This document shows, one piece after another, positions 9,664 through 58,995 of a stretch of DNA of 64,000 bases. Position 1 is the first letter of the stretch, and each line of letters begins with the position of its first letter. The stretch comes from Escherichia coli. Its GTDB lineage: Bacteria > Pseudomonadota > Gammaproteobacteria > Enterobacterales > Enterobacteriaceae. Both the position numbers and the translations under genes were made by a program. Location of the stretch: NCBI RefSeq assembly GCF_029227855.1, contig NZ_CP074358.1; one strand, given 5' to 3'. Under the pieces are notes generated by a model that was given only the letters and a program-made list of their open reading frames with translations, did not search any database and was not told where the DNA came from.

Positions 9664-9674
9664 TATATCAGAAT
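9657..9674. repeat. Perfect 18-bp palindrome attctgatatatcagaat containing the stop codons of both convergent genes (parR and impB)
   Basis: Read directly; TGA at 9661-9663 (+) and TGA at 9670-9668 (-) are symmetric within the palindrome. Confidence 0.8.
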
Positions 9675-11376: not shown

Positions 11377-11621
11377 GCTGCAGGCAGCCAGCTGTCGTCC
11401 TGCCAGATTTCTTCCAGCAGAGACAGGATACGTTCTTTATCCTTGTCGTTGCGGGCTCCTGTGACAGATACAGACGGGGCGCTGCCCTGGTCAATACGCA
11501 GCCAGATTTCCGGGTAGTGTGGTTTCAGACGTTGTTCGATTTCATTCTGTAGCGCCTGAAGTGTGCCTGATTTGAGGTTTTTTGTGCTCTGGCGGTCGAA
11601 AAGAATTTCAATGCGGATCAT
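11373..11621 (-). CDS. impC: ImpC-like small protein, first gene of impCAB operon (82 aa)
   Basis: Start moved to MIRIEILFDR (ATG 11621, ggaga RBS); overlaps impA start; position and size match ImpC. Confidence 0.7.
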   Translation of the reverse strand: MIRIEILFDRQSTKNLKSGTLQALQNEIEQRLKPHYPEIWLRIDQGSAPSVSVTGARNDKDKERILSLLEEIWQDDSWLPAA

Positions 11622-12978: not shown

Positions 12979-13323
12979 CCGGTAAAGGATGTCGCCGTGC
13001 TCCTCTTTTTACTGCGCCGGCTGACGCGGCGCGGCATAAACGCTGCCTGTGGTCAGTGTCCCGCGTCCGGTGGGTACGGGACGGGCGCTTTTACCGCTCC
13101 CGGCTGGCGTCGGTGACAGTGTACGCCAGCCTGTCGCCCTTTTCTGATGAGCGCCCTTCAAGCCGCTTTCGCGGCATAGCCTTGCCGTCAAAAAGACGAC
13201 GGCTGCGGTATTCCACGGTCGGCCTGACCCGTTACCGGACGCGGTGAACAGCCCACAGGCAGCGGGGAACGGGCACCACAGGGGTGCCCTCCCGGTGCCT
13301 TCTGTAAGAGAAGGAGTGTTGTT

Positions 13324-14007
13324 ATGTCCCGTTTTGTCCTCGGTAACTGCATCGATGTTATGGCCCGTATTCCTGATAACGCCATTGATTTCATACTGAC
13401 TGACCCGCCATATCTCGTCGGTTTCCGTGACCGTTCCGGGCGCACCATCGCCGGTGATAAAACCGACGAATGGCTGCAACCGGCCTGTAATGAAATGTAC
13501 CGCGTGCTGAAAAAAGATGCGCTGATGGTGAGCTTCTATGGCTGGAACCGCGTCGATCGCTTTATGGCCGCCTGGAAAAATGCGGGATTCAGCGTGGTTG
13601 GCCACCTGGTATTTACCAAAACCTACACATCGAAGGCCGCATATGTGGGCTATCGCCACGAATGCGCTTACATCCTGGCAAAAGGGCGTCCGGCGCTGCC
13701 TCAGAAGCCATTGCCCGACGTGCTGGGCTGGAAATATTCAGGCAACCGCCATCACCCGACGGAAAAGCCTGTTACCAGCCTGCAACCACTGATTGAGAGC
13801 TTCACACACCCGAACGCGATTGTGCTGGACCCGTTTGCAGGCAGCGGCTCAACCTGTGTGGCTGCCCTTCAGTCCAGACGCCGGTATATCGGTATCGAGC
13901 TGCTTGAACAGTATCACCGTGCCGGACAGCAACGACTGGCCGCCGTGCAACGGGCCATGCAGCAGGGGGCCGCGAATAATAACTGGTTTGAACCGGAGGC
14001 TGCGTAA
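13324..14007 (+). CDS. Orphan DNA methyltransferase (N6-adenine/N4-cytosine type, beta-class motif order)
   Basis: DPPY motif IV (ILTDPPYLVGF) precedes motif I (FAGSGSTCVAA); RBS agaaggag; no restriction endonuclease partner nearby. Confidence 0.85.
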   Translation: MSRFVLGNCIDVMARIPDNAIDFILTDPPYLVGFRDRSGRTIAGDKTDEWLQPACNEMYRVLKKDALMVSFYGWNRVDRFMAAWKNAGFSVVGHLVFTKTYTSKAAYVGYRHECAYILAKGRPALPQKPLPDVLGWKYSGNRHHPTEKPVTSLQPLIESFTHPNAIVLDPFAGSGSTCVAALQSRRRYIGIELLEQYHRAGQQRLAAVQRAMQQGAANNNWFEPEAA

Positions 14008-17169: not shown

Positions 17170-17625
17170 CCTGATGTTGTTGTTCCTTTATCTGCTGCTC
17201 TGATTCTGACTACTGCAGTGTTGTTCTGTCTGCCGGGCGCACCTTCGGCTCCCGGCATCCCGGCAAAAGGCCGCCGGGATGTAAGGGGCAACGCCGTTTC
17301 GCGCACGCGCTCTCCGTCGTTGCGGCGGGTCCCTGCTCATTGCCTGCCGGTGCCACACACCCGTATGAGTCCCTGTCGCCGGGGGCTGATACAGCCACAA
17401 CCTGCCGCACTGACTGTCCAGGGTAAATGAACAGCCCACAAAATTTTTTACCCAAAACCCGGTAAAAAATTTTGCGTTCTGCCCAGGACAGGTGCGTCAG
17501 GCCGTGGCAGTGATGCCCCTTGCGGCGAAGGTTCTCAAACGGGTGAAGTTCATACCACAGGGAATACAGCAGCAGGTTCCCGCGAAACGTCAAAACCGCG
17601 GCTCCCGAAACTCAACGGGTGATGT
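17170..17625. repeat. Frpo/ssi-like structured non-coding repeat, copy A (short form)
   Basis: Shares 5' block ctgattctgactactgcagtgttg...cgggcgcaccttcggctcccggc and 3' block with copies B and C; lacks ~190 bp internal block; hairpin 17437-17476. Confidence 0.6.
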
Positions 17626-17853
17626 TCTTTAAAAATCAGGATTTATTTCAGGCTCCGGCAATACGCATTTATGTGTTCTGTCAGTCATCCGGCTGGCAGG
17701 TAATGAGAACGCAGGAACAGAAGGAGGAAAACACCGGAGAACGTCAGACGCAGATATGAAAAAAGCAGGTCAGGGACCTGCTTAATCCACACCGCAGAGA
17801 CTGCACGAACAGTCTTTACGGTTTCATTAATTAACGTCATAAGAGGCTAAATT

Positions 17854-18084
17854 ATGACAGTAAGTATTGTTTCACCTTCCGCAGCGGCTGTAAAGCCCCG
17901 CCGTCATCCCCGTTGCAGACGCGAAGACATCCCCGCGCCGGAAATTGACCCCGTGCTGAAAGCCTTCGGGCGACACATTGCCCGGAGTTTTCACCGGGGG
18001 CGTGGTGTACACATCCCCGCCATGAAAAACACGGCCTTCGGGCAGGTGCTCCGCACACTCGAACTGAAACGCGCTTTTAACTGA
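17854..18084 (+). CDS. Small basic hypothetical protein (76 aa)
   Basis: First ORF after repeat copy A; RBS agagg about 10 nt upstream. Confidence 0.35.
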   Translation: MTVSIVSPSAAAVKPRRHPRCRREDIPAPEIDPVLKAFGRHIARSFHRGRGVHIPAMKNTAFGQVLRTLELKRAFN

Positions 18085-18135: not shown

Positions 18136-19497
18136 ATGACATTAGCAGCAATCACCATGACCGCCCCGGAAGCCGCCAGCCCTGTGCAGATGTACCGCGC
18201 GACCTACTCACCGGATGACAACAAACTGCGCCTGTATGCCGTGTCACGTCTTGACTCGGAGACGTATAAAAAAGTGCATGATGCCGGTTTCCGCTGGGCA
18301 CCAAAACAGGCGCTGTTTGTCGCGCCAGCCTGGACACCGGGCCGGGAAGACGTGCTCCTCTCACTTGCCGGAGAGATTGAGGATGAAGACAGCACGCTCG
18401 CTGAACGTCAGGAAGCACGGGCGGAGCGGTTTACCGGATACAGCGGAAAGCGGGCCAGTGAATCCGCACAGGCACTTGATGAAGTGGAAAGACTGGCCGC
18501 GATGATCCCGCCCGGTCAGCCCATTCTTGTGGGGCATCACAGCGAACGCCGCACCCGTCGTGATGCGCAGCGTATTGAAAACGGCATGAAACGAGCCGTG
18601 ATGCTCTTTGAACGTGCGGAATACTGGGAAGAGCGGGCGCGGTCGGCACTGCTTCACGCGAAGTATAAAGAACGTCCGGACGTTCGCTGGCGTCGTATCA
18701 AAAAAATCGAAGCTGATTTGCGCAAGGCTGAAAAGACCATCGCGCAGTCGCAGAAATATCTGACGATGTGGCGGGCTGAATCGCTGGATCTGAATATGGC
18801 AAAACTCATCAGCAGTCATGACCATATCAGCGCCTGTTTCCCGCTGGATACGTATCCGCGCCCGGCAGAAAAAAGCCAGTATGAAGGAAGTCGATCGTTA
18901 TGGTCGGCCCTGGATGATGACATCATCACCACGGAGCAGGCCCGCGAAATTGCGATCCGCTGTCATGAACGGCAGATTCAGCATCAACAACGCTGGGTTA
19001 ACCACTATCAGAACCGCCTGATCTATGAGCGTGCCATGCTGGACGAAAGCGGCGGCGTGGTTACCCGGACACAGGATTTTGAGCCGGGCGGACAGGTTTT
19101 CAGCCGGGGCGAGTGGCTGACCATCATCCGTGTGAACAAAAGCAACGGGGCGGTGAGTTCAGTCACAACGCCAAATTACAGTTTTCTCGGGTACAGCGGC
19201 ACGATGAAAGTGACGCCCGATCGCATCACGGACTACAAAGCACCATCGGCAGAAGAGGCTGCCGTCGCCAGTCAGGCCGCGAAGCGTCCGCCGGTAGTCA
19301 ACTATCCGGGGGAAGGTTTCCGGGAAATGACAAAGGCACAGTGGGCCGCCCTGCCCCGGGACTGTAAGGCCGTGCGCAGTGTGGCAGAAGCAGAAGACCA
19401 CGGGGCATACCGGTACCGCCGCACAATGGACAATAATTTCCGCCTGGTGAATGTGTATATCACCGACATGAAAATCACGGAAATCCCACAGAAATAA
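18136..19497 (+). CDS. Conserved hypothetical protein, 453 aa (DUF3560-like large leading-region protein)
   Basis: Long ORF with RBS ggaaggaga; charged helical middle region; family assignment from memory only. Confidence 0.65.
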   Translation: MTLAAITMTAPEAASPVQMYRATYSPDDNKLRLYAVSRLDSETYKKVHDAGFRWAPKQALFVAPAWTPGREDVLLSLAGEIEDEDSTLAERQEARAERFTGYSGKRASESAQALDEVERLAAMIPPGQPILVGHHSERRTRRDAQRIENGMKRAVMLFERAEYWEERARSALLHAKYKERPDVRWRRIKKIEADLRKAEKTIAQSQKYLTMWRAESLDLNMAKLISSHDHISACFPLDTYPRPAEKSQYEGSRSLWSALDDDIITTEQAREIAIRCHERQIQHQQRWVNHYQNRLIYERAMLDESGGVVTRTQDFEPGGQVFSRGEWLTIIRVNKSNGAVSSVTTPNYSFLGYSGTMKVTPDRITDYKAPSAEEAAVASQAAKRPPVVNYPGEGFREMTKAQWAALPRDCKAVRSVAEAEDHGAYRYRRTMDNNFRLVNVYITDMKITEIPQK

Positions 19498-19544: not shown

Positions 19545-20108
19545 ATGCACAGTCAGTTAAGAGAACGTATCCGGCTGATGCGCGCAAGGCTGGATAACGC
19601 CGCGCCGGTTGCTGAAATCCGGGCTGAATCTCAGCTTTTTGTGACTCCTGCCCCGGTCTGTGATCGCCTGGTGATGCTGGCGGAGATCAGCAACCGTGAT
19701 CACATTCTGGAACCCTCTGCCGGCACCGGGGCCATACTGCGGGCGATTCGGGATACCGCGCCGGGGGCCATGTGTGATGCGGTGGAAATCAACAGCGGGC
19801 TGGTCCGGTATCTGCGGGAAAATTTTAACGGTGTCAGGGTTCAGTGTGGCGACTTCATGGAATGGCAGCCAGTGCAGTATTACAGCCGGGTTATCATGAA
19901 TCCGCCGTTCAGCCACGGGCAGGATATCCGGCATATCCTGCGGGCCTTTTCCCTGTTGCGTCCGGGTGGCGTGCTGGTCGCCGTCTGTCTCAACGGACCA
20001 CGCCAGCAGGAGAAGCTGTTACCGTTTTCTGACGTCCGCGAGGAGCTGCCGCGCGGCACGTTTGCTTATACCGATGTCCCGACGATGATTATTCGTCTGC
20101 GTGCCTGA
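19545..20108 (+). CDS. Small SAM-dependent methyltransferase-like protein (187 aa), candidate second orphan methyltransferase
   Basis: Motif I EPSAGTGA and NPPF motif; RBS ggagg. Confidence 0.65.
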   Translation: MHSQLRERIRLMRARLDNAAPVAEIRAESQLFVTPAPVCDRLVMLAEISNRDHILEPSAGTGAILRAIRDTAPGAMCDAVEINSGLVRYLRENFNGVRVQCGDFMEWQPVQYYSRVIMNPPFSHGQDIRHILRAFSLLRPGGVLVAVCLNGPRQQEKLLPFSDVREELPRGTFAYTDVPTMIIRLRA

Positions 20109-20264: not shown

Positions 20265-20965
20265 GTTACTGATGATGTTGTTGTTCCTGCTACTGCTACT
20301 GCTACTGCTACTGCTACTGCTACTGTTCTTCTTTTTCCTGCTGCTCTGATTCTGACTACTGCAGTGTTGTCCTGTCTGCCGGGCGCACCTTCGGCTCCCG
20401 GCTGCCTGGCGGCATCCGGTCGTCAGGCCCGACTCCGACAGGCAGCTGCTGGCGCACCTGCCAGTCTCCGCCGAACCCGCTGGCGCGGTTTCGGGCTGTC
20501 GCTACGGTCCGATGCGTGAAAACCCCGGGCTTGCAGCGACCGTTCCGGTCGCGCCACCCTTGTCGCGCCGTGGCCTGCGCTCCTGGCATCCCGGCAAAAG
20601 GCCGCCGGGATGTAAGGGGCAACGCCGTTTCGCAAACCGCGCTTCACGTCGTTGCGGCGGGTCCCTGCCCGTTGTTCTGTCCGGTGCCATTCACCTGTTT
20701 AAGCCCCTGTCGCCGGGGGCAAAGACAGCCACAACCGTCTCCGCCAGTCCAGGGGTGAAATGTACATCCCGCAAAACTTTTTGCCCAAAAGCAGGCAAAA
20801 ACTTTTGCGGTCTGCCCCCGGACAGTCGTTTCCGTCCGTGGCAGTGATGCCCCTTGCGGCGAAGGTTCTCAAAAAGGTGATGGTGAATACCGGAGGGAAC
20901 AAAAGGCAGGTCCCCGCAAAACGTCAAAACCGCGGCTCCCGAAACTCAAAAGATGATGGGGGCTG
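20265..20965. repeat. Frpo/ssi-like structured non-coding repeat, copy B (long form), immediately upstream of ssb
   Basis: Near-identical to copy C over ~620 bp; hairpin ccgcaaaactttttgcc-caaaagca-ggcaaaaacttttgcgg at 20769-20810. Confidence 0.6.
20287..20325. repeat. Hexanucleotide microsatellite (CTGCTA)x6.5
   Basis: Six perfect tandem ctgcta units plus ctg, at the 5' edge of repeat copy B; absent from copies A and C. Confidence 0.9.
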
Positions 20966-20991
20966 AAAACATCAACAGAAGGAGGCACATC

Positions 20992-25056: not shown

Positions 25057-25249
25057 TGCGGCAACAATCACACGGATTTCCCGTGAACGGTCTGAATGAG
25101 CGGATTATTTTCAGGGAAAGTGAGTGTGGTCAGCGTGCAGGTATATGGGCTATGATGTGCCCGGCGCTTGAGGCTTTCTGCCTCATGACGTGAAGGTGGT
25201 TTGTTGCCGTGTTGTGTGGCAGAAAGAAGATAGCCCCGTAGTAAGTTAA

Positions 25250-25320
25250 TTTTCATTAACCACCACGAGGCATCCCTATGTCTAGTCCACATCAGGATAG
25301 CCTCTTACCGCGCTTTGCGC
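25250..25320 (-). ncRNA. sok: Candidate Sok-like antisense RNA of the hok/mok locus (approximate coordinates)
   Basis: Inferred from hok/sok architecture; region antisense to the mok translation-initiation region. Confidence 0.35.
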
Positions 25321-25490
25321 AAGGAGAAGAAGGCCATGAAACTACCACGAAGTTCCCTTGTCTGGTGTGTGTTGATCGTGTGTCTCACACTGTTGATATT
25401 CACTTATCTGACACGAAAATCGCTGTGCGAGATTCGTTACAGAGACGGACACAGGGAGGTGGCGGCTTTCATGGCTTACGAATCCGGTAA
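25278..25490 (+). CDS. mok: Mok-like overlapping reading frame (modulator of hok translation)
   Basis: 70-codon ORF overlapping hok in another frame, as in hok/sok loci. Confidence 0.5.
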
Positions 25491-25494
25491 GTAG
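25336..25494 (+). CDS. hok: Hok-family membrane toxin (52 aa)
   Basis: [52 protein letters not shown]; not in the ORF track because <60 aa; RBS aggagaag. Confidence 0.9.
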
Positions 25495-25744: not shown

Positions 25745-26395
25745 GTGATTATTCTCTTTTTCTTCCTGCTCTGATTCTGACTACTGCAGTGTTGTCCTGT
25801 CTGCCGGGCGCACCTTCGGCTCCCGGCTGCCTGGCGGCATCCGGTCGTCAGGCCCGACTCCGACAGGCAGCTGCTGGCGCACCTGCCAGTCTCCGCCGAA
25901 CCCGCTGGCGCGGTTTCGGGCTGTCGCTACGGTCCGATGCGTGAAAACCCCGGGCTTGCAGCGACCGTTCCGGTCGCGCCGCCTCTGTCGCGCCGTGGCC
26001 TGCGCTCCTGGCATCCCGGCAAAAGGCCGCCGGGATGTAAGGGGCAACGCCGTTTCGCAAACCGCGCTTCACGTCGTTGCGGCGGGTCCCTGCCCGTTGT
26101 TCTGTCCGGTGCCATTCACCTGTTTAAGCCCCTGTCGCCGGGGGCTGATACAGCCACAACCTGCCGCACTGACTGTCCAGGGTAAATGAACAGCCCGCAA
26201 AACTTTTTGCCCAGAAGCAGGCAAAAACTTTTGCGGTCTGCCCCCGGACAGTCGTTTCCGGCCGTGGCAGTGATGCCCCATGCGGCGAAGGTTCTCAAAC
26301 AGGTGATGGTGAATACCGGAGGGAACAAAAGGCAGGTCCCCGCAAAACGTCAAAACCGCGGCTCCCGAAACTCAACAGATGATGGGGGCTGAAAA
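25745..26395. repeat. Frpo/ssi-like structured non-coding repeat, copy C (long form)
   Basis: Near-identical to copy B; hairpin 26195-26236; 3' part resembles copy A (ctgatacagccacaacctgccgcactgactgtccagggtaaatgaacagccc). Confidence 0.6.
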
Positions 26396-26416
26396 CCAGA
26401 GAGAGGAGAAAGCAGG

Positions 26417-26704
26417 ATGAGTACCCGAAATATCCAAGTTAACACCGCGTCGTACACGCTTCTTGTTGCCGGGAAGAAAAAAAACACCGGGGAAGAGTGG
26501 GACGTCCTGGAATTCAGCAGCCTGACTGAGCTGAAAAAATATCGCAAAAGCCACCCGGAAAAGATGGCCTTCAGTTATAGCTACGCGCTCAGTCAGGGTG
26601 TGGATAAGCAGTTCCGCCATATCAACATTGCGGAAGCCGATCACTTCAAACAGTTCCTGCGTCAGATTAAGCGTGCCGGCCTCGATATCCGGGCGATCTG
26701 CTGA
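26417..26704 (+). CDS. Small conserved leading-region protein (95 aa)
   Basis: ATG 26417 with aggagaaagcagg RBS directly after repeat copy C. Confidence 0.55.
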   Translation: MSTRNIQVNTASYTLLVAGKKKNTGEEWDVLEFSSLTELKKYRKSHPEKMAFSYSYALSQGVDKQFRHINIAEADHFKQFLRQIKRAGLDIRAIC

Positions 26705-26823: not shown

Positions 26824-27588
26824 ATGCGATTAGCTTCCCGTTTTGGTCGGTATAATTCCATCCGCCGTGAACGTCCTTTAACGGATGATGAATTAATGCA
26901 GTTCGTGCCTTCGGTATTTTCCGGTGATAAACCTGAGTCCCGGAGTGAACGTTATACGTATATTCCAACAATCAATATCATCAATAAGTTACGTGATGAA
27001 GGTTTCCAGCCATTCTTTGCCTGTCAGAGTCGGGTTCGTGATTTGGGACGTCGCGAATACAGTAAACATATGTTACGTCTTCGCAGGGAAGGGCATATTA
27101 ACGGACAGGAAGTTCCTGAAATTATCCTGCTTAATTCACATGATGGTTCATCCAGTTATCAGATGATCCCCGGAATTTTTCGTTTTGTCTGCACAAATGG
27201 CCTGGTGTGCGGAAATAATTTTGGCGAAATCCGCGTTCCACATAAAGGTGATATTGTCGGGCAGGTTATCGAGGGAGCGTATGAAGTGCTCGGTGTCTTT
27301 GATAAGGTCACTGATAATATGGAGGCGATGAAAGAAATTCATCTTAACAGTGACGAGCAACATTTATTTGGCAGAGCTGCACTGATGGTCAGGTATGAAG
27401 ATGAAAATAAAACGCCAGTGACACCTGAACAGATAATTATTCCCCGTCGTCGGGAAGACAAACAGAACGATCTCTGGACAACCTGGCAGCGGGTTCAGGA
27501 GAATATGATAAAAGGTGGATTATCGGGGCGAAGTGCCTCCGGAAAAATACCAGGACAAGAGCCATTACAGGTATTGATGGTGATATAA
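26824..27588 (+). CDS. Conserved leading-region protein (254 aa), oriT-proximal
   Basis: RBS aaaggag; no catalytic motif recognised. Confidence 0.6.
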   Translation: MRLASRFGRYNSIRRERPLTDDELMQFVPSVFSGDKPESRSERYTYIPTINIINKLRDEGFQPFFACQSRVRDLGRREYSKHMLRLRREGHINGQEVPEIILLNSHDGSSSYQMIPGIFRFVCTNGLVCGNNFGEIRVPHKGDIVGQVIEGAYEVLGVFDKVTDNMEAMKEIHLNSDEQHLFGRAALMVRYEDENKTPVTPEQIIIPRRREDKQNDLWTTWQRVQENMIKGGLSGRSASGKIPGQEPLQVLMVI

Positions 27589-27940
27589 GAATCAACAAGG
27601 CGTTATGGGTGATTGCCGAACAGTTCAGAAAGTGGAAGTCATGATAATATAAGTAAAGCCCCGAAAAAATTTTCGGGGCTTTACTTATATTATCATTTTT
27701 CGGCATTGCTGTGTCGTCTGATATACCTCAATTTCATCAACCGGCTTTCCGGTTGTCTGTAAATATTGTGCCCGCGAAAAATGGTCTGGCAGGAGGCTGC
27801 GCAGTTACCGGGTATATATAAGATGGGTTCCCGCTTCGCGGGGCTTCGGCCAGTCAGTATTGTCACTCATATGATATTTTTGTGTGTGGCCTTCCATGCC
27901 GCTTTTGCGGCATAACCGGTATCTGACAATGTCTGTAAGA

Positions 27941-28450
27941 TTAATTGTTCTGCACGCTGTTAATTTCCGGAAGTGATTTCTTCGTGGCCGGAAGCCGGAT
28001 ACCTTTACTGCTTTTTATCCCGGTATAAATCCGGTAAACATCTGATGCGTAGGCAAGACGTCTCTGGTTCTGGCGTTCGGTTTTCCTGAATCCGGCATTG
28101 TATGCACCAACGGCCTCCCAGGTGACGCCCCATTTTTTAAATGCTATTGCCAGATAATAAGCACCGGTATAAATGTTCATGCAGGGATCTGTTGTCAGAT
28201 GTTCTGGCTTAATTCCGTAGCGGGCCAGTTCGTTAAAATGCTGGGAATCTACCTGCATCAGTCCGCTGCCATATCCCGTTACCGGATTAATACCGATGGC
28301 ATTAACCCGGTAACGGGATTCTTGCCATGATATTGCTCTCAGTAAATCAGGATCTATTTTGTAATCCCGGCCTGCAAGATCAAAGCAATCAGTGGCCTGG
28401 CAGATCTCATTTATAAACATCAGGCAGATGGCTAACATCCATTTTTTCAT
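27941..28450 (-). CDS. Lytic transglycosylase (F plasmid gene X / orf169 / P19 family), 169 aa
   Basis: Signal peptide [19 protein letters not shown]; SLT motifs ISWQESRY and GLMQV; start moved to MKKW (ATG 28450). Confidence 0.85.
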
Positions 28451-28499
28451 TTTTCCACCTCTGGTGACTTTATCCGTAAATAATTTAACCCACTCCACA

Positions 28500-28860
28500 A
28501 AAAGGCTCAACAGGTTGGTGGTTCTCACCACCAAAAGCACCACACCCCACGCAAAAACAAGTTTTTGCTGATTTTTCTTTATAAATAGAGAGTTATGAAA
28601 AATTAGTTTCTCTTACTCTCTTTATGATATTTAAAAAAGCGGTGTCGGCGCGGCTACAACAACGCGCCGACACCGCTTTGTAGGGGTGGTGCTGACTATT
28701 TTTATAAAAAACATTATTTTATATTAGGGGTGCTGCTAGCGGCGCGGTGTGTTTTTTTATAGGATACCGCTAGGGGCGCTGCTAGCGGTGCGTCCCTGTT
28801 TGCATTATGAATTTTAGTGTTTCGAAATTAACTTTATTTTATGTTCAAAAAAGGTAATCT
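28500..28860. other. oriT: Origin of transfer (oriT) with F-type nic region and inverted/direct repeats
   Basis: Bottom strand carries ttgcgtggggtgtggtgcttttggtggtgagaacc (F-like nic sequence, nick near 28540/28541); 14-bp inverted repeat gcggtgtcggcgcg/cgcgccgacaccgc at 28639-28676; direct repeats gctgctagcgg(c/t)gcg. Confidence 0.75.
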
Positions 28861-28863
28861 CTA

Positions 28864-29247
28864 ATGGCTAAGGTGAACCTGTATATCAGCAATGATGCCT
28901 ATGAAAAAATAAATGCGATTATTGAGAAGCGTCGACAGGAAGGGGCAAGGGAAAAAGATGTCAGTTTTTCAGCAACAGCTTCAATGCTTCTTGAACTGGG
29001 GCTTCGTGTACATGAGGCTCAGATGGAGCGTAAAGAGTCTGCATTTAATCAGACTGAGTTTAATAAATTGCTTCTTGAATGCGTTGTAAAAACACAATCA
29101 TCAGTAGCGAAAATTTTGGGTATTGAGTCTCTCAGTCCTCATGTCTCCGGAAATCCAAAGTTTGAATATGCCAATATGGTTGAAGATATCAGGGAGAAGG
29201 TATCATCTGAGATGGAACGATTTTTTCCAAAAAATGATGATGAATAA
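28864..29247 (+). CDS. traM: TraM relaxosome accessory protein
   Basis: 127 aa matching recalled F TraM (MAKVNLYISNDAYEKINAIIEKRRQEGAREKDVSFSATASMLLELGL...). Confidence 0.95.
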   Translation: MAKVNLYISNDAYEKINAIIEKRRQEGAREKDVSFSATASMLLELGLRVHEAQMERKESAFNQTEFNKLLLECVVKTQSSVAKILGIESLSPHVSGNPKFEYANMVEDIREKVSSEMERFFPKNDDE

Positions 29248-29354
29248 AAGAAATTTGACTTCGTTCAAATATCAGAGTTTTTATGATTTAAAAAGGTGAC
29301 AGTACGAAAGATAATTAGTATATTAATTACGTGGTTAATGCCACGTTAAAATTT

Positions 29355-29435
29355 GAATTTGAAAATCGCCGATGCAGGGAGTTCTCTCCTCCCTGCATCG
29401 ACTGTCCATAGAATCCTTTGTGAGGAGGTTCCTAT
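29355..29435 (-). ncRNA. finP: FinP antisense RNA (approximate), complementary to the traJ leader
   Basis: 12-bp perfect hairpin cgatgcagggag-ttctctc-ctccctgcatcg at 29370-29400 in the traJ 5' UTR; architecture of FinOP systems. Confidence 0.5.
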
Positions 29436-30123
29436 GTATCCGATGGATCGTATTCAACAAAAACATGCTCGTCAAATAGATCTGCTGGAAAATCTGACGG
29501 CAGTTATTCAGGATTATCCAAATCCAGCCTGTATCAGGGACGAAACTGGAAAATTTATTTTTTGCAATACGCTGTTTCATGAGTCATTTCTTACACAAGA
29601 TCAAAGTGCTGAAAAATGGCTTCTGTCGCAGAGAGATTTTTGTGAATTGATCTCTGTCACAGAGATGGAAGCATACAGGAATGAGCATACGCATCTTAAT
29701 CTTGTAGAGGATGTTTTTATTCAGAACAGATTCTGGACAATATCTGTCCAGTCATTTCTTAATGGACACAGAAATATCATTCTGTGGCAATTTTATGATG
29801 CTGCTCATGTTCGTCATAAAGACAGTTATAATCAAAAAACGATTGTCAGTGATGATATCAGAAATATAATCAGAAGAATGAGTGATGATTCTTCTGTATC
29901 ATCATATGTAAATGATGTCTTTTACTTATATAGCACCGGAATCAGTCATAATGCTATAGCAAGAATATTAAACATATCCATCTCCACATCAAAGAAACAC
30001 GCGTCTCTGATATGCGACTACTTCTCTGTTTCTAATAAAGATGAGTTAATCATCTTACTCTACAATAAAAAGTTTATTCATTATTTGTACGAGAAGGCTA
30101 TGTGTATCATAAATACGCGTTAA
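29434..30123 (+). CDS. traJ: TraJ transfer activator (229 aa)
   Basis: ATG 29434 with gaggagg RBS; AT-rich gene; position between traM and traY. Confidence 0.85.
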   Translation: MYPMDRIQQKHARQIDLLENLTAVIQDYPNPACIRDETGKFIFCNTLFHESFLTQDQSAEKWLLSQRDFCELISVTEMEAYRNEHTHLNLVEDVFIQNRFWTISVQSFLNGHRNIILWQFYDAAHVRHKDSYNQKTIVSDDIRNIIRRMSDDSSVSSYVNDVFYLYSTGISHNAIARILNISISTSKKHASLICDYFSVSNKDELIILLYNKKFIHYLYEKAMCIINTR

Positions 30124-30221
30124 TAAAGTGTTAATAAAATATAGGCTTTCCGTCTATTTACCTTTTCTGATTATTCTGCAAACATAAGTAGTAACCAGAA
30201 GATAAACAGCGGGAGGTGTTA

Positions 30222-30617
30222 TTGAAAAGATTTGGTACACGTTCTGCAACAGGTAAGATGGTAAAACTAAAATTACCTGTAGATGTGGAAAGTCTATTAA
30301 TTGAGGCAAGTAACAGAAGCGGAAGAAGTCGATCGTTTGAGGCAGTAATAAGACTTAAAGATCATCTTCACCGCTATCCAAAGTTTAACAGGGCAGGGAA
30401 TATCTATGGTAAGTCGCTGGTTAAGTATCTGACAATGCGTCTGGATGATGAAACTAACCAGCTACTTATTGCAGCCAAAAATCGTAGTGGATGGTGTAAA
30501 ACAGATGAGGCTGCAGACAGAGTTATTGATCATTTGATCAAGTTTCCTGATTTTTATAACTCGGAGATATTCAGGGAGGCAGATAAAGAGGAAGATATAA
30601 CATTTAATACACTCTAG
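30222..30617 (+). CDS. traY: TraY oriT-binding RHH protein (131 aa, TTG start)
   Basis: MKRFGTRSATGKMVKLKLPVDVESLLIEASNRSGRSRSFEAVIRL (tandem RHH); gggagg RBS 5 nt upstream of TTG. Confidence 0.85.
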   Translation: MKRFGTRSATGKMVKLKLPVDVESLLIEASNRSGRSRSFEAVIRLKDHLHRYPKFNRAGNIYGKSLVKYLTMRLDDETNQLLIAAKNRSGWCKTDEAADRVIDHLIKFPDFYNSEIFREADKEEDITFNTL

Positions 30618-44235: not shown

Positions 44236-44583
44236 ATGAGTGAAGATTATTTGAAAATGTTTACAGGTGTTGTTCTGTTAATATTTGTCATTATTGCCGG
44301 TTATTTCTTTTCTGAGCGTAATGACAGGAAAATGTTTCTCCTGAGCTCACTGGTTTTCCTTGTTATTAATATCGCGTGTTTATATGTGCTGACTGCCAGT
44401 CTCTGGTTTCTGTGTGGTGCAATTATGAATCAGGGCGCAGCAATGGTTGTTCCAATGGTTATTGGCTCATTACCGAACGTTACGAGCTTCGACGGGTTCA
44501 GAAGAATATTTATCTGTATTATGTTGTCATCAGTATGGTCCGGAGTGATGTGGTTTTTTATAAGGGGGCTTATGACAGGCTAA
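44236..44583 (+). CDS. trbA: TrbA
   Basis: 115 aa polytopic membrane protein; F order. Confidence 0.75.
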   Translation: MSEDYLKMFTGVVLLIFVIIAGYFFSERNDRKMFLLSSLVFLVINIACLYVLTASLWFLCGAIMNQGAAMVVPMVIGSLPNVTSFDGFRRIFICIMLSSVWSGVMWFFIRGLMTG

Positions 44584-44701
44584 GTCATATAAAACGGTAA
44601 TAAAAACCATACAAAATAATGAGGTTGATCTGATTAATATCACACAAACGCGAATATTACAGACATAAATACTCTCATGTAAATAATAACCGGAGTTTAA
44701 C

Positions 44702-50002: not shown

Positions 50003-50022
50003 TATTGTATGGGGAGATGATA

Positions 50023-50520: not shown

Positions 50521-50551
50521 GAAAACTGTGGTTTGTAATAAAGGTAATTTG

Positions 50552-51535: not shown

Positions 51536-53725
51536 ATGAGTTTTAACGCAAAGGATATGACCCAGGGCGGTCAGATTGCGTCCATGCGTATCCGCATGTT
51601 CAGCCAGATCGCCAATATCATGCTTTACTGCCTGTTTATTTTTTTCTGGATACTCGTTGGTCTGGTTTTATGGGTAAAAATAAGCTGGCAGACGTTTGTG
51701 AACGGCTGTATTTACTGGTGGTGTACCACGCTGGAAGGCATGCGGGATTTAATCAAGTCCCAGCCGGTCTATGAGATCCAGTATTACGGCAAAACCTTCC
51801 GGATGAATGCTGCTCAGGTACTGCATGATAAATATATGATCTGGTGCGGAGAGCAGCTATGGTCCGCATCCGTTCTGGCCACAGTTGTGGCACTGGTTAT
51901 TTGCCTGATTACCTTCTTTGTTGTCTCCTGGATTCTGGGGCGTCAGGGTAAACAACAGAGCGAAAATGAAGTCACAGGTGGTCGTCAGCTGACAGACAAT
52001 CCGAAAGACGTTGCCCGGATGCTGAAAAAAGACGGCAAGGACTCCGATATCCGGATTGGCGACCTGCCGATTATCCGGGATTCTGAAATCCAGAACTTCT
52101 GTCTGCACGGCACGGTCGGGGCCGGTAAGTCGGAAGTTATCCGTCGTCTGGCCAACTACGCCCGTCAGCGCGGTGATATGGTGGTGATTTATGACCGTTC
52201 AGGGGAATTTGTTAAAAGTTACTATGATCCCTCCATCGATAAGATCCTGAATCCGCTGGATGCCCGCTGTGCCGCCTGGGATTTATGGAAGGAGTGTCTG
52301 ACACAGCCGGATTTTGATAATACGGCAAATACCCTGATCCCGATGGGCACAAAAGAGGACCCGTTCTGGCAGGGTTCAGGACGTACCATTTTTGCGGAAG
52401 CGGCGTACCTGATGCGTAATGACCCCAACCGCAGCTACAGCAAACTGGTGGACACACTGCTTTCCATCAAAATCGAAAAACTGCGTACCTTCCTGCGTAA
52501 TTCACCGGCGGCCAACCTGGTGGAAGAGAAAATTGAGAAAACGGCGATTTCCATCCGTGCTGTGCTGACCAACTACGTGAAAGCCATCCGTTACCTGCAG
52601 GGGATTGAGCATAACGGTGAGTCTTTTACCATCCGTGACTGGATGCGGGGTGTCCGGGAAGATCAGAAAAACGGCTGGCTGTTTATCTCGTCGAATGCCG
52701 ACACCCATGCCTCCCTGAAGCCGGTGATCTCCATGTGGCTGTCCATTGCCATTCGTGGTCTGCTGGCAATGGGAGAAAACCGTAACCGTCGTGTGTGGTT
52801 TTTCTGTGATGAGCTACCCACGTTACACAAACTGCCGGACCTGGTGGAGATCCTGCCGGAAGCCCGTAAGTTCGGTGGCTGTTATGTGTTTGGTATCCAG
52901 TCCTATGCCCAGCTGGAAGATATCTACGGTGAGAAAGCGGCTGCCACGCTGTTTGACGTCATGAACACCCGTGCCTTTTTCCGTTCTCCCAGCCATAAGA
53001 TTGCAGAGTTCGCTGCCGGTGAGATTGGTGAGAAAGAGCACCTGAAAGCCAGCGAGCAGTACTCCTACGGTGCTGATCCGGTACGTGACGGGGTATCGAC
53101 CGGTAAGGATATGGAGCGCCAGACGCTGGTCAGTTATTCCGACATTCAGTCTCTGCCGGATTTGACCTGTTATGTCACCCTGCCCGGACCGTATCCGGCA
53201 GTAAAACTCTCACTGAAATATCAGGCACGTCCGAAGGTTGCCCCTGAGTTTATTCCGCGTGACATCAACCCGGAAATGGAGAACCGCCTGAGCGCCGTAC
53301 TTGCCGCAAGGGAAGCAGAAGGTCGTCAGATGGCCAGCCTCTTCGAACCGGATGTGCCGGAAGTTGTTTCCGGAGAAGACGTGACTCAGGCTGAACAGCC
53401 GCAACAGCCGCAACAGCCGCAACAGCCGCAACAGCCGCAACAGCCGGTGTCTCCTGCCATCAACGATAAGAAGTCAGATTCAGGTGTGAATGTTCCGGCA
53501 GGGGGGATCGAGCAGGAGCTGAAAATGAAACCGGAAGAAGAGATGGAACAGCAACTGCCACCCGGGATCAGTGAATCCGGTGAAGTGGTGGATATGGCCG
53601 CTTATGAGGCATGGCAACAGGAAAATCATCCGGACATCCAGCAGCAGATGCAGCGTCGTGAAGAGGTGAACATTAATGTGCACCGGGAGCGCGGGGAGGA
53701 TGTTGAGCCGGGAGATGATTTCTGA
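51536..53725 (+). CDS. traD: TraD type IV coupling protein
   Basis: 729 aa; N-terminal TM segments, Walker [10 protein letters not shown]-terminal (QQP)n tail. Confidence 0.95.
53393..53446 (+). repeat. 9-bp tandem repeat (caacagccg x6, first unit gaacagccg) encoding the TraD QQP tail
   Basis: Read directly from sequence; translates to [18 protein letters not shown]. Confidence 0.9.
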
Positions 53726-56700
53726 TGATGAGTATCGCGCAGGTCAGATCGGCCGGAAGTGCCGGTAACTATTATACCGACAAGGATAATTACTATGTGC
53801 TGGGCAGCATGGGAGAACGCTGGGCCGGCAGGGGGGCTGAACAGCTGGGACTGCAGGGCAGTGTCGATAAGGATGTTTTTACCCGTCTTCTGGAGGGAAG
53901 GCTGCCGGACGGAGCGGATCTAAGCCGCATGCAGGATGGCAGTAACAGGCATCGTCCCGGCTACGACCTGACCTTCTCCGCCCCCAAAAGTGTCTCCATG
54001 ATGGCCATGTTAGGTGGCGATAAGCGCCTGATTGATGCACATAACCAGGCCGTGAACTTTGCTGTTCGTCAGGTGGAGGCGCTGGCCTCCACACGGGTGA
54101 TGACGGACGGACAGTCAGAAACGGTGCTGACCGGTAATCTGGTGATGGCACTGTTTAACCACGACACCAGTCGCGATCAGGAACCACAGTTACACACGCA
54201 TGCGGTGGTGGCTAATGTCACGCAGCATAACGGTGAGTGGAAGACACTGAGCAGTGACAAAGTGGGGAAAACGGGGTTCATTGAGAATGTGTACGCTAAT
54301 CAGATTGCCTTTGGCAGGCTCTATCGGGAAAAACTGAAAGAGCAGGTTGAGGCGCTGGGCTATGAAACCGAAGTGGTGGGTAAGCACGGTATGTGGGAGA
54401 TGCCGGGCGTACCGGTGGAGGCCTTTTCCGGACGCTCACAGGCTATCCGAGAGGCCGTCGGGGAAGATGCCTCGCTGAAATCCCGGGATGTGGCGGCACT
54501 GGATACGCGAAAATCCAAACAGCACGTCGATCCTGAAGTCAGAATGGCTGAATGGATGCAGACGCTGAAGGAAACCGGGTTCGACATCCGGGCATATCGT
54601 GACGCGGCGGATCAGCGTGCGGAGACCCGCACGCAGGCGCCCGGGGCTGTTTCACTGGAGGGGCCGGATGTGCAGCAGGCGGTGACACAGGCGATTGCCG
54701 GATTAAGTGAACGAAAAGTGCAGTTTACGTACACGGACGTGCTGGCCAGAACAGTCGGCATACTGCCGCCGGAAAATGGTGTGATTGAACGGGCACGCGC
54801 CGGTATCGATGAGGCCATCAGCCGTGAGCAGCTCATCCCCCTCGATCGTGAGAAGGGGCTGTTCACGTCCGGGATTCATGTGCTCGATGAGCTGTCAGTC
54901 CGGGCACTCAGTCGTGACATCATGAAACAGAACCGGGTGACCGTACATCCGGAGAAAAGTGTCCCCCGGACGGCCGGTTACAGCGATGCGGTCAGTGTTT
55001 TGGCACAGGATCGCCCGTCGCTGGCTATTGTGTCCGGGCAGGGCGGTGCAGCCGGGCAGCGTGAGCGGGTGGCGGAGCTGGTCATGATGGCCCGGGAGCA
55101 GGGGCGGGAGGTGCAGATTATCGCCGCTGACCGTCGCTCGCAGATGAACCTGAAGCAGGATGAACGGCTGTCCGGTGAGCTGATAACCGGACGTCGTCAG
55201 CTGCAGGAGGGCATGGCCTTCACGCCGGGCAATACTGTTATCGTTGACCAGGGCGAAAAACTCTCCCTGAAAGAGACGTTAACCCTGCTGGACGGTGCTG
55301 CACGTCATAACGTACAGGTCCTGATAACCGACAGCGGGCAGCGAACCGGTACAGGCAGTGCACTGATGGCCATGAAAGATGCCGGGGTGAACACATATCG
55401 CTGGCAGGGGGGAGAACAGCGGCCGGCCACCATCATCAGTGAACCGGACCGTAATGTCCGCTATGCCCGGCTGGCAGGAGATTTTGCGGCCAGCGTGAAA
55501 GCCGGAGAAGAGAACGTGGCACAGGTCAGCGGGGTACGGGAACAGGCCATACTGACACAGGCCATTCGCAGTGAGCTGAAAACACAGGGCGTGCTCGGAC
55601 GCCCGGAGGTAACCATGACCGCCCTGTCGCCGGTCTGGCTGGACAGCCGGAGCCGTTATCTGCGGGATATGTACCGTCCGGGGATGGTGATGGAGCAGTG
55701 GAACCCGGAGACACGCAGTCATGACCGCTATGTTATCGACCGGGTGACGGCGCAGAGTCACAGCCTGACCCTGCGGGATGCGCAGGGTGAAACGCAGGTG
55801 GTGCGTATTTCCTCCCTGGACAGCAGCTGGTCGCTGTTCCGGCCGGAAAAAATGCCGGTGGCAGACGGCGAGCGACTGAGGGTGACAGGGAAAATTCCCG
55901 GACTCCGCGTCTCCGGCGGTGACCGCCTGCAGGTGGCATCCGTCAGTGAAGATGCGATGACGGTTGTTGTGCCGGGGCGGGCTGAACCGGCCTCCCTGCC
56001 TGTGAGCGATTCACCATTCATGGCACTGAAGCTGGAGAACGGCTGGGTGGAAACGCCAGGGCATTCCGTCAGCGACAGTGCGACGGTTTTTGCCTCCGTC
56101 ACACAGATGGCAATGGACAATGCCACCCTGAACGGTCTGGCCCGCAGTGGTCGTGATGTCCGGCTGTATTCCTCACTGGATGAAACCCGTACTGCGGAAA
56201 AACTTGCCCGCCATCCCTCCTTTACGGTGGTTTCTGAGCAGATAAAGGCGCGTGCCGGTGAGACATTGCTGGAAACCGCTATCAGTCTGCAGAAAGCCGG
56301 ACTTCACACGCCGGCACAGCAGGCCATTCATCTGGCCCTTTCTGTGGTGGAAAGTAAAAACCTGGCCTTCAGCATGGTGGACCTGCTGACAGAGGCGAAG
56401 TCGTTTGCTGCAGAAGGAACCAGTTTTGTTGACCTGGGACGGGAAATCAATACGCAGATAAAACGCGGTGATTTACTGCATGTGGATGTGGCAAAAGGCT
56501 ATGGCACAGACCTGCTGGTTTCCCGTGCGTCGTATGAGGCAGAAAAGAGCATTCTTCGCCATATTCTCGAAGGTAAGGAGGCGGTCACGCCGCTGATGGA
56601 GAGAGTACCTGGCGAACTCATGGAGAAACTGACATCAGGACAGCGTGCCGCCACCCGCATGATACTGGAAACGTCCGACCGTTTCACGGTGGTGCAGGGC

Positions 56701-58995
56701 TATGCCGGTGTGGGTAAGACCACACAGTTCCGGGCGGTGATGTCAGCCGTGAACATGCTGCCGGAGAGAGAGCGTCCCCGTGTCGTTGGGCTGGGGCCCA
56801 CGCACCGTGCGGTCGGGGAGATGCGCAGTGCCGGCGTGGATGCGCAGACACTGGCGTCTTTTCTGCATGACACGCAGCTGCAGCAGCGCAGCGGAGAAAC
56901 GCCGGATTTCAGCAACACGCTGTTCCTGCTTGATGAGAGCTCAATGGTGGGCAATACCGACATGGCACGGGCATACGCCCTGATTGCGGCCGGTGGCGGT
57001 CGTGCTGTGGCCAGCGGCGACACGGACCAGCTGCAGGCCATCGCGCCCGGTCAGCCTTTCCGTCTCCAGCAGACGCGCAGTGCTGTCGATGTGGCCATCA
57101 TGAAGGAGATTGTGCGTCAGACGCCGGAACTGCGGGAGGCGGTATACAGCCTGATTAACCGGGATGTGGAAAGGGCACTGTCCGGGCTTGAGAGTGTGAA
57201 ACCGTCTCAGGTGCCACGTCAGGAGGGCGCATGGGCACCGGAGCACTCCGTGACGGAGTTCAGTCACAGCCAGGAAGCGAAACTGGCAGAAGCGCAGCAG
57301 AAGTCGATGCTGAAAGGCGAGGCTTTCCCGGATGTCCCCATGACACTGTATGAAGCCATTGTCCGCGACTATACCGGCAGGACACCGAAAGCACGGGAGC
57401 AGACGCTTATTGTCACGCACCTGAATGAGGACCGGCGCGTGCTGAACAGCATGATTCATGATGCACGGGAAAAGGCCGGTGAGCTGGGGCAGGAGCAGGT
57501 CATGGTGCCTGTCCTGAACACAGCGAATATACGCGACGGGGAGTTGCGTCGTCTCTCCACCTGGGAGACACATCGGGACGCACTTGCCCTGGTGGATAAT
57601 GTGTATCACCGGATTGCCGGTATCAGCAAGGATGACGGGCTGATAACCCTGCAGGATGCGGAAGGTAACACGCGGCTGATTTCGCCCCGGGAGGCGGTGG
57701 CTGAAGGCGTCACACTGTACACTCCGGACACCATCCGGGTGGGAACCGGTGACCGGATGCGCTTCACGAAGAGTGACCGGGAGCGCGGTTATGTGGCCAA
57801 CAGCGTCTGGACGGTGACAGCGGTTTCCGGTGACAGTGTCACGCTGTCGGACGGACAGCAGACCCGGGTGATTCGCCCCGGTCAGGAGCGGGCAGAGCAA
57901 CATATTGACCTGGCCTATGCCATCACCGCCCACGGTGCGCAGGGGGCAAGTGAAACCTTTGCCATTGCGCTTGAAGGCACGGAAGGTAACCGGAAACAGA
58001 TGGCCGGCTTTGAGTCAGCCTACGTGGCCCTGTCGCGTATGAAGCAGCATGTGCAGGTGTATACCGATAACCGTCAGGGCTGGACGGATGCCATTAACAA
58101 TGCCGTACAGAAAGGAACTGCCCACGATGTGCTTGAGCCGAAATCGGACCGGGAGGTCATGAATGCAGAGCGGCTGTTCAGTACGGCGCGGGAGCTGCGG
58201 GACGTGGCGGCCGGCCGTGCCGTTCTCCGTCAGGCAGGGCTGGCCGGGGGAGACAGTCCTGCACGGTTTATTGCACCCGGGCGCAAATATCCGCAGCCGT
58301 ATGTGGCACTGCCGGCTTTTGACCGTAACGGCAAGTCAGCAGGTATCTGGCTGAACCCGCTGACCACGGATGACGGAAATGGGCTGCGGGGCTTCAGTGG
58401 TGAAGGCCGGGTGAAAGGCAGCGGGGATGCGCAGTTCGTGACCCTGCAGGGCAGCCGTAACGGAGAGAGCCTGCTGGCTGATAATATGCAGGATGGTGTC
58501 CGGATTGCCCGTGATAATCCTGACAGCGGTGTGGTGGTAAGAATCGCCGGTGAAGGTCGTCCGTGGAATCCCGGTACCATCACCGGTGGTCGCGTGTGGG
58601 GGGATATCCCGGACAACAGCGTTCAGCCGGGAGCCGGAAATGGCGAACCGGTCACGGCAGAGGTACTGGCACAGCGGCAGGCTGAAGAGGCCATCCGCCG
58701 TGAAACGGAACGCCGTGCGGATGAAATTGTCCGTAAAATGGCAGAGAACAAACCTGACCTGCCGGACGGCAAAACAGAGCAGGCTGTCAGGGATATTGCC
58801 GGGCTGGAGCGTGACCGATCTGCCATATCTGAACGGGAAGCCGCGCTGCCGGAGAGTGTACTGCGTGAACCACAACGGGTGCGGGAAGCGGTCCGGGAGG
58901 TCGCCCGGGAAAATCTGCTGCAGGAGCGACTGCAGCAGATGGAGCGGGATATGGTTCGTGACCTGCAGAAAGAGAAAACCCTGGGCGGAGACTGA
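53725..58995 (+). CDS. traI: TraI relaxase-helicase (MobF family)
   Basis: 1756 aa; N-terminal relaxase (HTH...H.H motifs), two helicase regions with Walker A GYAGVGKTT; start overlaps traD stop (TGATG). Confidence 0.97.
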   Translation: MMSIAQVRSAGSAGNYYTDKDNYYVLGSMGERWAGRGAEQLGLQGSVDKDVFTRLLEGRLPDGADLSRMQDGSNRHRPGYDLTFSAPKSVSMMAMLGGDKRLIDAHNQAVNFAVRQVEALASTRVMTDGQSETVLTGNLVMALFNHDTSRDQEPQLHTHAVVANVTQHNGEWKTLSSDKVGKTGFIENVYANQIAFGRLYREKLKEQVEALGYETEVVGKHGMWEMPGVPVEAFSGRSQAIREAVGEDASLKSRDVAALDTRKSKQHVDPEVRMAEWMQTLKETGFDIRAYRDAADQRAETRTQAPGAVSLEGPDVQQAVTQAIAGLSERKVQFTYTDVLARTVGILPPENGVIERARAGIDEAISREQLIPLDREKGLFTSGIHVLDELSVRALSRDIMKQNRVTVHPEKSVPRTAGYSDAVSVLAQDRPSLAIVSGQGGAAGQRERVAELVMMAREQGREVQIIAADRRSQMNLKQDERLSGELITGRRQLQEGMAFTPGNTVIVDQGEKLSLKETLTLLDGAARHNVQVLITDSGQRTGTGSALMAMKDAGVNTYRWQGGEQRPATIISEPDRNVRYARLAGDFAASVKAGEENVAQVSGVREQAILTQAIRSELKTQGVLGRPEVTMTALSPVWLDSRSRYLRDMYRPGMVMEQWNPETRSHDRYVIDRVTAQSHSLTLRDAQGETQVVRISSLDSSWSLFRPEKMPVADGERLRVTGKIPGLRVSGGDRLQVASVSEDAMTVVVPGRAEPASLPVSDSPFMALKLENGWVETPGHSVSDSATVFASVTQMAMDNATLNGLARSGRDVRLYSSLDETRTAEKLARHPSFTVVSEQIKARAGETLLETAISLQKAGLHTPAQQAIHLALSVVESKNLAFSMVDLLTEAKSFAAEGTSFVDLGREINTQIKRGDLLHVDVAKGYGTDLLVSRASYEAEKSILRHILEGKEAVTPLMERVPGELMEKLTSGQRAATRMILETSDRFTVVQGYAGVGKTTQFRAVMSAVNMLPERERPRVVGLGPTHRAVGEMRSAGVDAQTLASFLHDTQLQQRSGETPDFSNTLFLLDESSMVGNTDMARAYALIAAGGGRAVASGDTDQLQAIAPGQPFRLQQTRSAVDVAIMKEIVRQTPELREAVYSLINRDVERALSGLESVKPSQVPRQEGAWAPEHSVTEFSHSQEAKLAEAQQKSMLKGEAFPDVPMTLYEAIVRDYTGRTPKAREQTLIVTHLNEDRRVLNSMIHDAREKAGELGQEQVMVPVLNTANIRDGELRRLSTWETHRDALALVDNVYHRIAGISKDDGLITLQDAEGNTRLISPREAVAEGVTLYTPDTIRVGTGDRMRFTKSDRERGYVANSVWTVTAVSGDSVTLSDGQQTRVIRPGQERAEQHIDLAYAITAHGAQGASETFAIALEGTEGNRKQMAGFESAYVALSRMKQHVQVYTDNRQGWTDAINNAVQKGTAHDVLEPKSDREVMNAERLFSTARELRDVAAGRAVLRQAGLAGGDSPARFIAPGRKYPQPYVALPAFDRNGKSAGIWLNPLTTDDGNGLRGFSGEGRVKGSGDAQFVTLQGSRNGESLLADNMQDGVRIARDNPDSGVVVRIAGEGRPWNPGTITGGRVWGDIPDNSVQPGAGNGEPVTAEVLAQRQAEEAIRRETERRADEIVRKMAENKPDLPDGKTEQAVRDIAGLERDRSAISEREAALPESVLREPQRVREAVREVARENLLQERLQQMERDMVRDLQKEKTLGGD

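Follow-up and report, generated by a model that had tools for sequence, protein, structure and literature searches.

Which strand of a conjugative plasmid is cut at its origin of transfer (oriT), and from which strand are the first genes to enter the recipient then read? Both questions are raised by a short intergenic region in the 64,000-nucleotide stretch of Escherichia coli DNA analysed here (contig NZ_CP074358.1, assembly GCF_029227855.1; hereafter the window, with positions counted from its first letter). The features of interest sit between gene X, on the - strand, and traM, on the + strand, with the tra operon downstream of traM. We conclude that 28515-28860 is almost certainly where a conjugative plasmid of the F type (IncF, MOBF, MPF-F) has its origin of transfer, in the F-specific allele, and that the polarity of transfer and the template strand of the leading genes can be read from it. 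Nothing in the sequence contradicts an F-type oriT.

The nic site and the nicked strand

The F TraI substrate 5'-TTTGCGTGGGGTGT^GGT has a single exact match in the 64 kb, on the bottom strand (Table 1). This 17-mer is cleaved by F TraI in published cleavage and ligation assays, where the sequence 5' of nic is represented by oligonucleotides with the 3' end ...GTGGGGTGT and the sequence 3' of nic by oligonucleotides starting GGTGCTTTTGG... or GGTGCTTTTGGTGGTGAGAACC... (PMC3074121, PMC2504302). The published substrate sequences occur verbatim in the window, on the bottom strand only, and its sequence is identical to that of the 3'oriT oligonucleotides (PMC3074121). For F itself, these bases are likewise assigned explicitly to the "bottom" strand of the standard F numbering (PMC2504302). 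Sequence identity to F places nic between bottom-strand T28542 and G28541, where cleavage is to be expected in this plasmid by homology to the F experiments. Positions relative to nic follow the F relaxosome cryo-EM study, which counts the T-strand base on the 5' side of nic as +1 (PMC12117103).

The original prediction, made from the letters of the window, had located an F-like nic sequence on the bottom strand at about 28515-28550. Its strand and its kinship with F are borne out, but its coordinates need correction, since the 35-mer quoted there, ttgcgtggggtgtggtgcttttggtggtgagaacc, occurs once, at 28520-28554 (-), against a chance expectation of 0.00. A 40-mer across nic is also unique in the window, and a search of the 64 kb with the 16-mer core, allowing up to three mismatches, returned no second nic-like site.

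Layout of the protein-binding sites

Compared with the gene X-traM interval of classical F (NC_002483, the F reference throughout), positions 28440-28870 are identical at 428 of 431 nucleotides. The interval is matched by 4751 plasmid records, 992 of them at 99% or more. The three single-nucleotide differences from F K-12 are A28591, C28676 and G28691. The first two form a common natural haplotype that is also present in p109 and many natural plasmids; none of the 30 best plasmid hits, all matching at 99.8%, has G28691.

On either side of nic, the window has the sequences with which TraI is known to interact in F. The 8-bp inverted repeat next to the TraI site matches the F hairpin oligonucleotides (PMC3074121), and the hairpin of F oriT pushes TraI toward the joining (termination) reaction (PMC3074121). 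On the 3' side lies the putative loading site for TraI in its helicase mode, with an inverted repeat of its own (Table 1). Putative IHF-A and TraY sites follow between nic and sbmC, where identity to F places them (+23 to +90, with one SNP). That SNP, A28591 (position +50), is the one of the three differences that falls in IHF site A, and the TraY binding region is 100% identical to that of F, on which three TraY molecules are bound in a row (PMC12117103). Given this homology to the F experiments, the same protein footprints are predicted for the oriT of the window.

Table 1. Features of the oriT region, the cognate relaxosome genes and the adjoining leading region (positions in the window; numbers with a sign are relative to nic)
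Feature	Position	Strand	Remarks
Frpo-like copy A	17248..17615	-	78.8% to F ssiD; z = -11.1; no F counterpart at position
Frpo/ssiD copy B	20520..20970	-	96.9% to F ssiD; z = -10.4; F Frpo2 position
Frpo/ssiD copy C	25945..26396	-	91.5% to F ssiD; -126.5 kcal/mol, z = -12.4; F Frpo1 position
ygeA	26417-26704	+	
ygeB (DUF932)	26824-27588	+	
ssiE homologue	27758..27946	-	97.9% to F ssiE; bottom-strand fold z = -4.7
gene X (ORF169/ygfA, lytic transglycosylase)	27941..28450	-	classical start 28450
Predicted TraI helicase-mode loading site, GGTGCTTTTGGTGGTGAGAACCACCAA	28515..28541	-	3' of nic, -1 to -27; PMC12117103
Inverted repeat TTGGTGGT/ACCACCAA	28515-28522/28527-28534		inside helicase-mode loading site
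TraI relaxase (trans-esterase) ssDNA recognition sequence	28539..28555	-	F 'oriT17' oligonucleotide TTTGCGTGGGGTGT^GGT
TraI trans-esterase contacts	28540-28556		-2 to +15; F relaxosome cryo-EM numbering, PMC12117103
nic (predicted scissile bond)	28541..28542	-	T28542 = 5' side, +1; G28541 = 3' side, -1
8-bp inverted repeat GCAAAAAC/GTTTTTGC	28551..28568		directly 5' of TraI site on T-strand
IHF site A	28564..28601		+23 to +60; position transferred from F cryo-EM structure, PMC12117103
TraY binding region sbyC/sbyA	28602..28631		+61 to +90; position transferred from PMC12117103
TraM site sbmC, perfect 17-bp inverted repeat	28636..28679		+95 to +138; arms 28636-28652/28663-28679, 10-nt spacer
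sbmB/sbmA region	28725..28792		two 22-nt direct repeats; TraM motifs 28766, 28784
8-bp inverted repeat ACCGCTAG/CTAGCGGT	28766-28773/28782-28789		within sbmB/sbmA region
traM	28864..29247	+	126/127 identical to F TraM; Asn5 in RHH beta-ribbon
traY	30216..30617	+	100% identical to F TraY
traI	53725..58995	+	1756 aa, 96.9% identical to F TraI

The repeats beyond the TraY region had also been noticed in the original prediction, which gave the inverted repeat 14-bp arms. The repeat is real, but the arms are perfect over 17 nt, those of 14 bp (28639-28652/28663-28676) being their inner part. It is C28676 that makes the sbmC repeat perfect, turning ACCGTT of F into the consensus TraM motif ACCGCT; G28691 lies between sbmC and sbmB. 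Since A28591 and C28676 belong to a common haplotype, the perfect 17-bp repeat is the usual form and the mismatched repeat of F K-12 the unusual one. The DNA target of F TraM is the motif A(G/C)CG(C/G)T, arranged with inverted symmetry (PMC3159463); each arm holds one such motif, AGCGGT at 28638 and ACCGCT at 28672. The 17-bp repeat also falls within the span of the F DNA fragment from -27 to +143 relative to nic, which contains the full sbmC (PMC12117103), the TraM site of most weight for transfer (PMC3159463, PMC7555446).

Two direct repeats of GCTGCTAGCGG(C/T)GCG lie between gene X and traM as had been claimed, at 28732-28746 and 28778-28792, and two matches were reached in none of 100 shuffles. 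Each is part of a longer, 22-nt repeat (28725-28746 and 28771-28792), the two being 91% alike. We assign them to sbmB and sbmA from the order sbmC-sbmB-sbmA-traM, which we take to be that of the F oriT map. Exact TraM motifs occur in oriT at four places, the two in sbmC and those at 28766 and 28784, and this is the peak of motif density in the 64 kb: four in 200 bp, with all such 200-bp stretches lying within oriT. An F-type oriT is marked by three TraM sites in which A(G/C)CG(C/G)T motifs show inverted-repeat symmetry, and these are thus present. Both the inverted and the direct repeats of the original prediction are, on this sequence evidence, TraM binding sites that lie outside the nick determinant. 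In F, sbmB and sbmA are autoregulatory TraM sites that overlap and repress the traM promoters (PMC3159463, PMC7555446). A sigma-70 scan of oriT gave one weak hit, on the - strand, and no more than shuffled sequences did.

Cognate relaxosome proteins and the tra region

The window encodes the proteins that would act on these sites. When 34 F tra/trb products were compared by tblastn, 32 were matched, nearly all full-length and all on the + strand, and all relaxosome genes were among them. The relaxase domain of TraI is 97% identical to that of F and has Y16/Y17, of which Y16 is the catalytic tyrosine, the histidine triad H146/H157/H159 and Q193/R201. trbF aligned to F at its C-terminal end only; traS could not be aligned to F traS, and artA was absent.

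Could this oriT be a relic, or at least one that is not used, with transfer starting elsewhere or the plasmid no longer self-transmissible? The states of traS and artA would fit such a history, as would a shifted reading frame in the leading-region gene ygeB (described below). We nevertheless regard it as very improbable: the window has just one nic-like sequence together with all relaxosome genes and the 32 matched products, and all protein-binding sites are kept within three SNPs, two of which are a common natural haplotype. A working F-type oriT remains the preferred reading.

Other parts of the tra region deserve separate mention. It departs from F in three modules, at 44580-44700, 49950-50547 and 53722-53728: the absent artA, the divergent traS and the lack of a vapBC-like insert between traD and traI. 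traT is 99% identical to that of F although traS, the entry exclusion gene, is not alignable. Searches with Rfam models found FinP at 29362-29440 (-) and the traJ 5' UTR at 29329-29439 (+).

Polarity of transfer and orientation of the leading genes

In F, TraI stays on the 5' phosphate; that end is the first into the recipient, and the leading region comes next (PMC9849209). Since nic lies on the bottom strand, this strand, with TraI at its 5' end, would enter 5'-first from 28541 toward lower coordinates. The polarity, with the leading region first and tra last, is accordingly predicted by homology to the F experiments. The bottom strand is complementary to the + strand genes and therefore can serve as their template. 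That + strand genes at lower coordinates are templated by the incoming strand, as originally proposed, is supported by the bottom-strand nic and the F polarity (PMC9849209). The nic strand thus fixes the polarity of conjugative entry for annotating the window.

The arrangement of genes can be set against this polarity. Using the annotated genes of the related plasmid pAA projected onto the window, we found the + strand to carry every credible gene between 12.0 and 27.6 kb, gene X being the exception in the leading region. They comprise genes for DUF1281, a DNA methylase, two DUF1380 proteins, antirestriction, DUF3560 and a SAM methyltransferase, followed by ssb, DUF905, a ParB-like gene, psiB, psiA, hok, ygeA and ygeB. 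The annotation also has two small ORFs on the - strand, which overlap other features and seem spurious. Collinearity with F spans about 11.7 kb to 60.2 kb of the window; it begins where gene orientation switches, at about 11.7-12.0 kb. Just beyond the uniformly + leading region, 9668-11621 (-) holds a dinI-like gene, umuD and a Y-family polymerase gene.

Gene X is a special case. Leading genes of F in the orientation of the + set are expressed from single-stranded DNA, whereas ygfA (gene X), in the opposite orientation, is expressed only after conversion to double-stranded DNA (PMC9849209). In our analysis gene X would be the first gene in, and its sense strand is the T-strand, so that the incoming strand cannot serve as its template. 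In related plasmids, RefSeq-style annotation gives gene X as a 200-aa ORF from GTG 28543, a coding sequence that runs across nic. This form is probably an over-extension, the classical ORF169 having its ATG at 28450.

Orientation is a necessary condition for early expression and not a sufficient one, since the T-strand templates every + strand gene, including the tra operon. It is the Frpo/ssi single-strand promoters that enable early expression, not orientation alone. The polarity and these promoters together predict which genes can be expressed from single-stranded DNA: the + operons behind Frpo hairpins with ssb, psiB, psiA, antirestriction and methylase genes, and not gene X.

Several smaller features were seen among the leading genes. 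Near 27543, a G run in ygeB is one nucleotide shorter than in F and pAA, which leaves an ORF of 254 aa in place of 273, with homology ending at residue 241. Either the frameshift is real or the homopolymer was misread in sequencing; hence the leading region may not be fully functional, or the assembly may be in error here. For F, the ygeA/ygeB pair has been reported to matter in conjugation (PMC9849209). In the gap between the 3' ends of the convergent ygeB and gene X lies a perfect palindrome of 27 bp, its arms 2 nt apart (27641-27696); it is probably a bidirectional terminator, placed just before ssiE on the T-strand. The Rfam 'sok' model matches 25162-25338 (+), directly upstream of hok (25369-25491) and on the same strand as hok. 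If a real sok antisense RNA is encoded on the - strand, it would not be made from the incoming single strand, and hok mRNA could be.

Candidate single-strand promoters

Three repeats of about 450 bp, designated copies A to C (Table 1), match the two Frpo regions of F. Copy C lies upstream of ygeA and ygeB, and copy B upstream of ssb, DUF905, the ParB-like gene, psiB and psiA. Copy A precedes the DUF3560 gene (18136-19497) and the SAM methyltransferase gene (19545-20108), both on the + strand. On the bottom strand, each copy folds into an imperfect hairpin of about 320 nt (-109 to -126 kcal/mol, z from -10.4 to -12.4), a measure that alone does not tell the active strand, as both strands of a palindrome fold. 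In class 1 single-strand promoters (Frpo/ssiD/ssi1-3), the stem rebuilds a -35 and a -10 box. All three copies have a TTGACG hexamer on the bottom strand. An unbiased search for hairpins, covering 11.4 to 28.7 kb of the bottom strand, had the three copies among its top hits, together with oriT, the intergenic DNA of ygeB and gene X, and a stretch that precedes the DNA methylase gene. The ssiE homologue lies about 0.6-0.8 kb from nic on the T-strand.

The strand of these elements can be read from the published sequences. We used the ssiD and ssiE sequences of Supplementary Table 2 of PMC11541004, in which the candidate entries open with the start codon and ribosome-binding site of the downstream gene in reverse complement; the table is therefore in T-strand orientation. 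F ssiD (three times) and ssiE all map to the - strand of the window, the strand of nic, which as sequence evidence independently supports the bottom-strand assignment. Early expression in F is lost when Frpo1 or Frpo2 is deleted, and transcription there proceeds from single-stranded and not from double-stranded DNA (PMC9849209), as has also been shown for pESBL (PMC12672017). Moreover, protection by an anti-CRISPR gene is lowered when the gene is moved to the complementary strand or to the lagging region (PMC11541004). By analogy with F, the candidate promoters of the window would be active in the same way.

A different account accepts the strand assignment and explains the + orientation of the leading genes otherwise: they would be co-oriented with the tra operon or with replication, and most of them expressed only from double-stranded DNA. 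The tra operon is indeed all on the + strand as well, so that co-orientation extends across the plasmid from 12 kb to 60 kb, and a linear consensus scan of copy C found no sigma-70 -35/-10 pair at threshold. However, the T-strand carries three Frpo/ssiD homologues and ssiE immediately before + operons, and orientation is mixed below 12 kb, with dinI-umuDC on the - and parM on the + strand. The F deletions, with the delay in ygfA, and the anti-CRISPR experiments also argue against it. We therefore consider this account unlikely, though less so than a relic oriT, and retain the reading in which Frpo elements permit expression from the incoming single strand.

The three copies look like mosaics of the Frpo1 and Frpo2 sequence types of F, suggesting recombination or gene conversion between copies. 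Whether leading regions gain early-expressed, probably anti-defence, operons by duplicating and recombining a single-strand promoter cassette is a question on which we are evenly divided. Plasmids with several Frpo copies are already on record in a large-scale catalogue (PMC11541004). If true, the third cassette would be an example of such gain and not a discovery, and it is the only part of the system not already described for F.

Two further elements lie in this part of the window. The bottom strand at 13000-13330 is strongly structured (-97 kcal/mol, z = -8.0) just upstream of the DNA methylase gene (13324-14007, +), and may be the 'class 3' single-strand promoter of M.EcoGIX homologues (PMC12672017). 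Just downstream of copy A, 17760-17859 (-) matches the Rfam family AS-pc01 ('Antisense to pHK01_035') with 98.9 bits, antisense to the start of a small + strand ORF (17854-18081).

A proposed course of transfer

Taken together, the sites suggest the following sequence of events. In the donor, IHF would bend the DNA at 28564-28601, with three TraY molecules on 28602-31 and TraM tetramers on sbmC and on sbmB/sbmA, the latter repressing traM. The plasmid's own TraI would bind the melted bottom strand at 28539-28555 and cut between T28542 and G28541, its Tyr16 becoming joined to the 5' phosphate of G28541. A second TraI would load on 28515-28541 and unwind 5' to 3'. The bottom strand would then be exported 5'-first, starting with gene X, ssiE and the leading region and ending with the tra operon. 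In the recipient, before the complementary strand is made, only + genes behind single-strand promoters would be transcribed; these promoters would be the three Frpo/ssiD hairpins and possibly the structured element near 13.0-13.3 kb. Gene X, on the other strand, would have to wait for double-stranded DNA.

Comparison with F, R100/R1 and ColIb-P9

The F TraI data would be inapplicable if this oriT belonged to the R100/R1 specificity group. Its leading region is closest to those of pAA and similar plasmids. Between traD and traI, the window lacks the vapBC-like insert of F, so that the two genes abut as in R100. The determinants of specificity point the other way. The nic core is GTGGGGTGT, as in F, and not GTAGTGTGT, as in R100. 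TraI of the window has Q193/R201 as in F, whereas R100 has R193/Q201, at the two residues reportedly found by Harley and Schildbach in 2003 to set F/R100 specificity. TraM has Lys3/Asn5 as in F, in contrast to Arg3/Ile5 of R100, and TraY is of the 133-aa F form, where the annotated traY of R100 measures only 228 bp. R100 also has divergent TraY and TraM sites. The role of Asn5 of TraM has been described (PMC3159463). An R100/R1-type allele was accordingly rejected on its nic core and TraI residues, and we judge membership of that group exceedingly unlikely. Comparison with F and R100, which the original prediction had proposed as a check for the oriT, thus returned the F allele at every specificity point tested, and by each defining feature tested the locus belongs to the F-specific oriT family.

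The nick of F oriT, its strand, the relaxosome architecture and the expression of leading genes templated by single-stranded DNA are all experimentally established and already known, the mechanism and the template-strand logic of F having been worked out by biochemistry, structures and live-cell studies. To recognise an F-type oriT in the window is useful for reading its leading region and adds nothing to known biology. With the oriT of F it shares the nic sequence and strand, the hairpin 5' of nic, the layout of IHF, TraY and TraM sites, the flanking genes and the cognate TraI, TraY and TraM. With that of R100/R1 (IncFII) it shares the architecture, the position, an identical sequence 5' of the core (GCAAAAACTTGTTTTTGCGT) and the relaxase family, with 91% identity in the relaxase domain. 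The candidate single-strand promoters resemble Frpo/ssiD and ssiE of F and ssi1-3 of ColIb-P9: they are homologous (79-97% for ssiD, 98% for ssiE), lie on the nic strand, form long imperfect hairpins and precede the same operons. Frpo is present in three copies in the window and in two in F, and the extra copy precedes the module of DUF3560 and methyltransferase genes.
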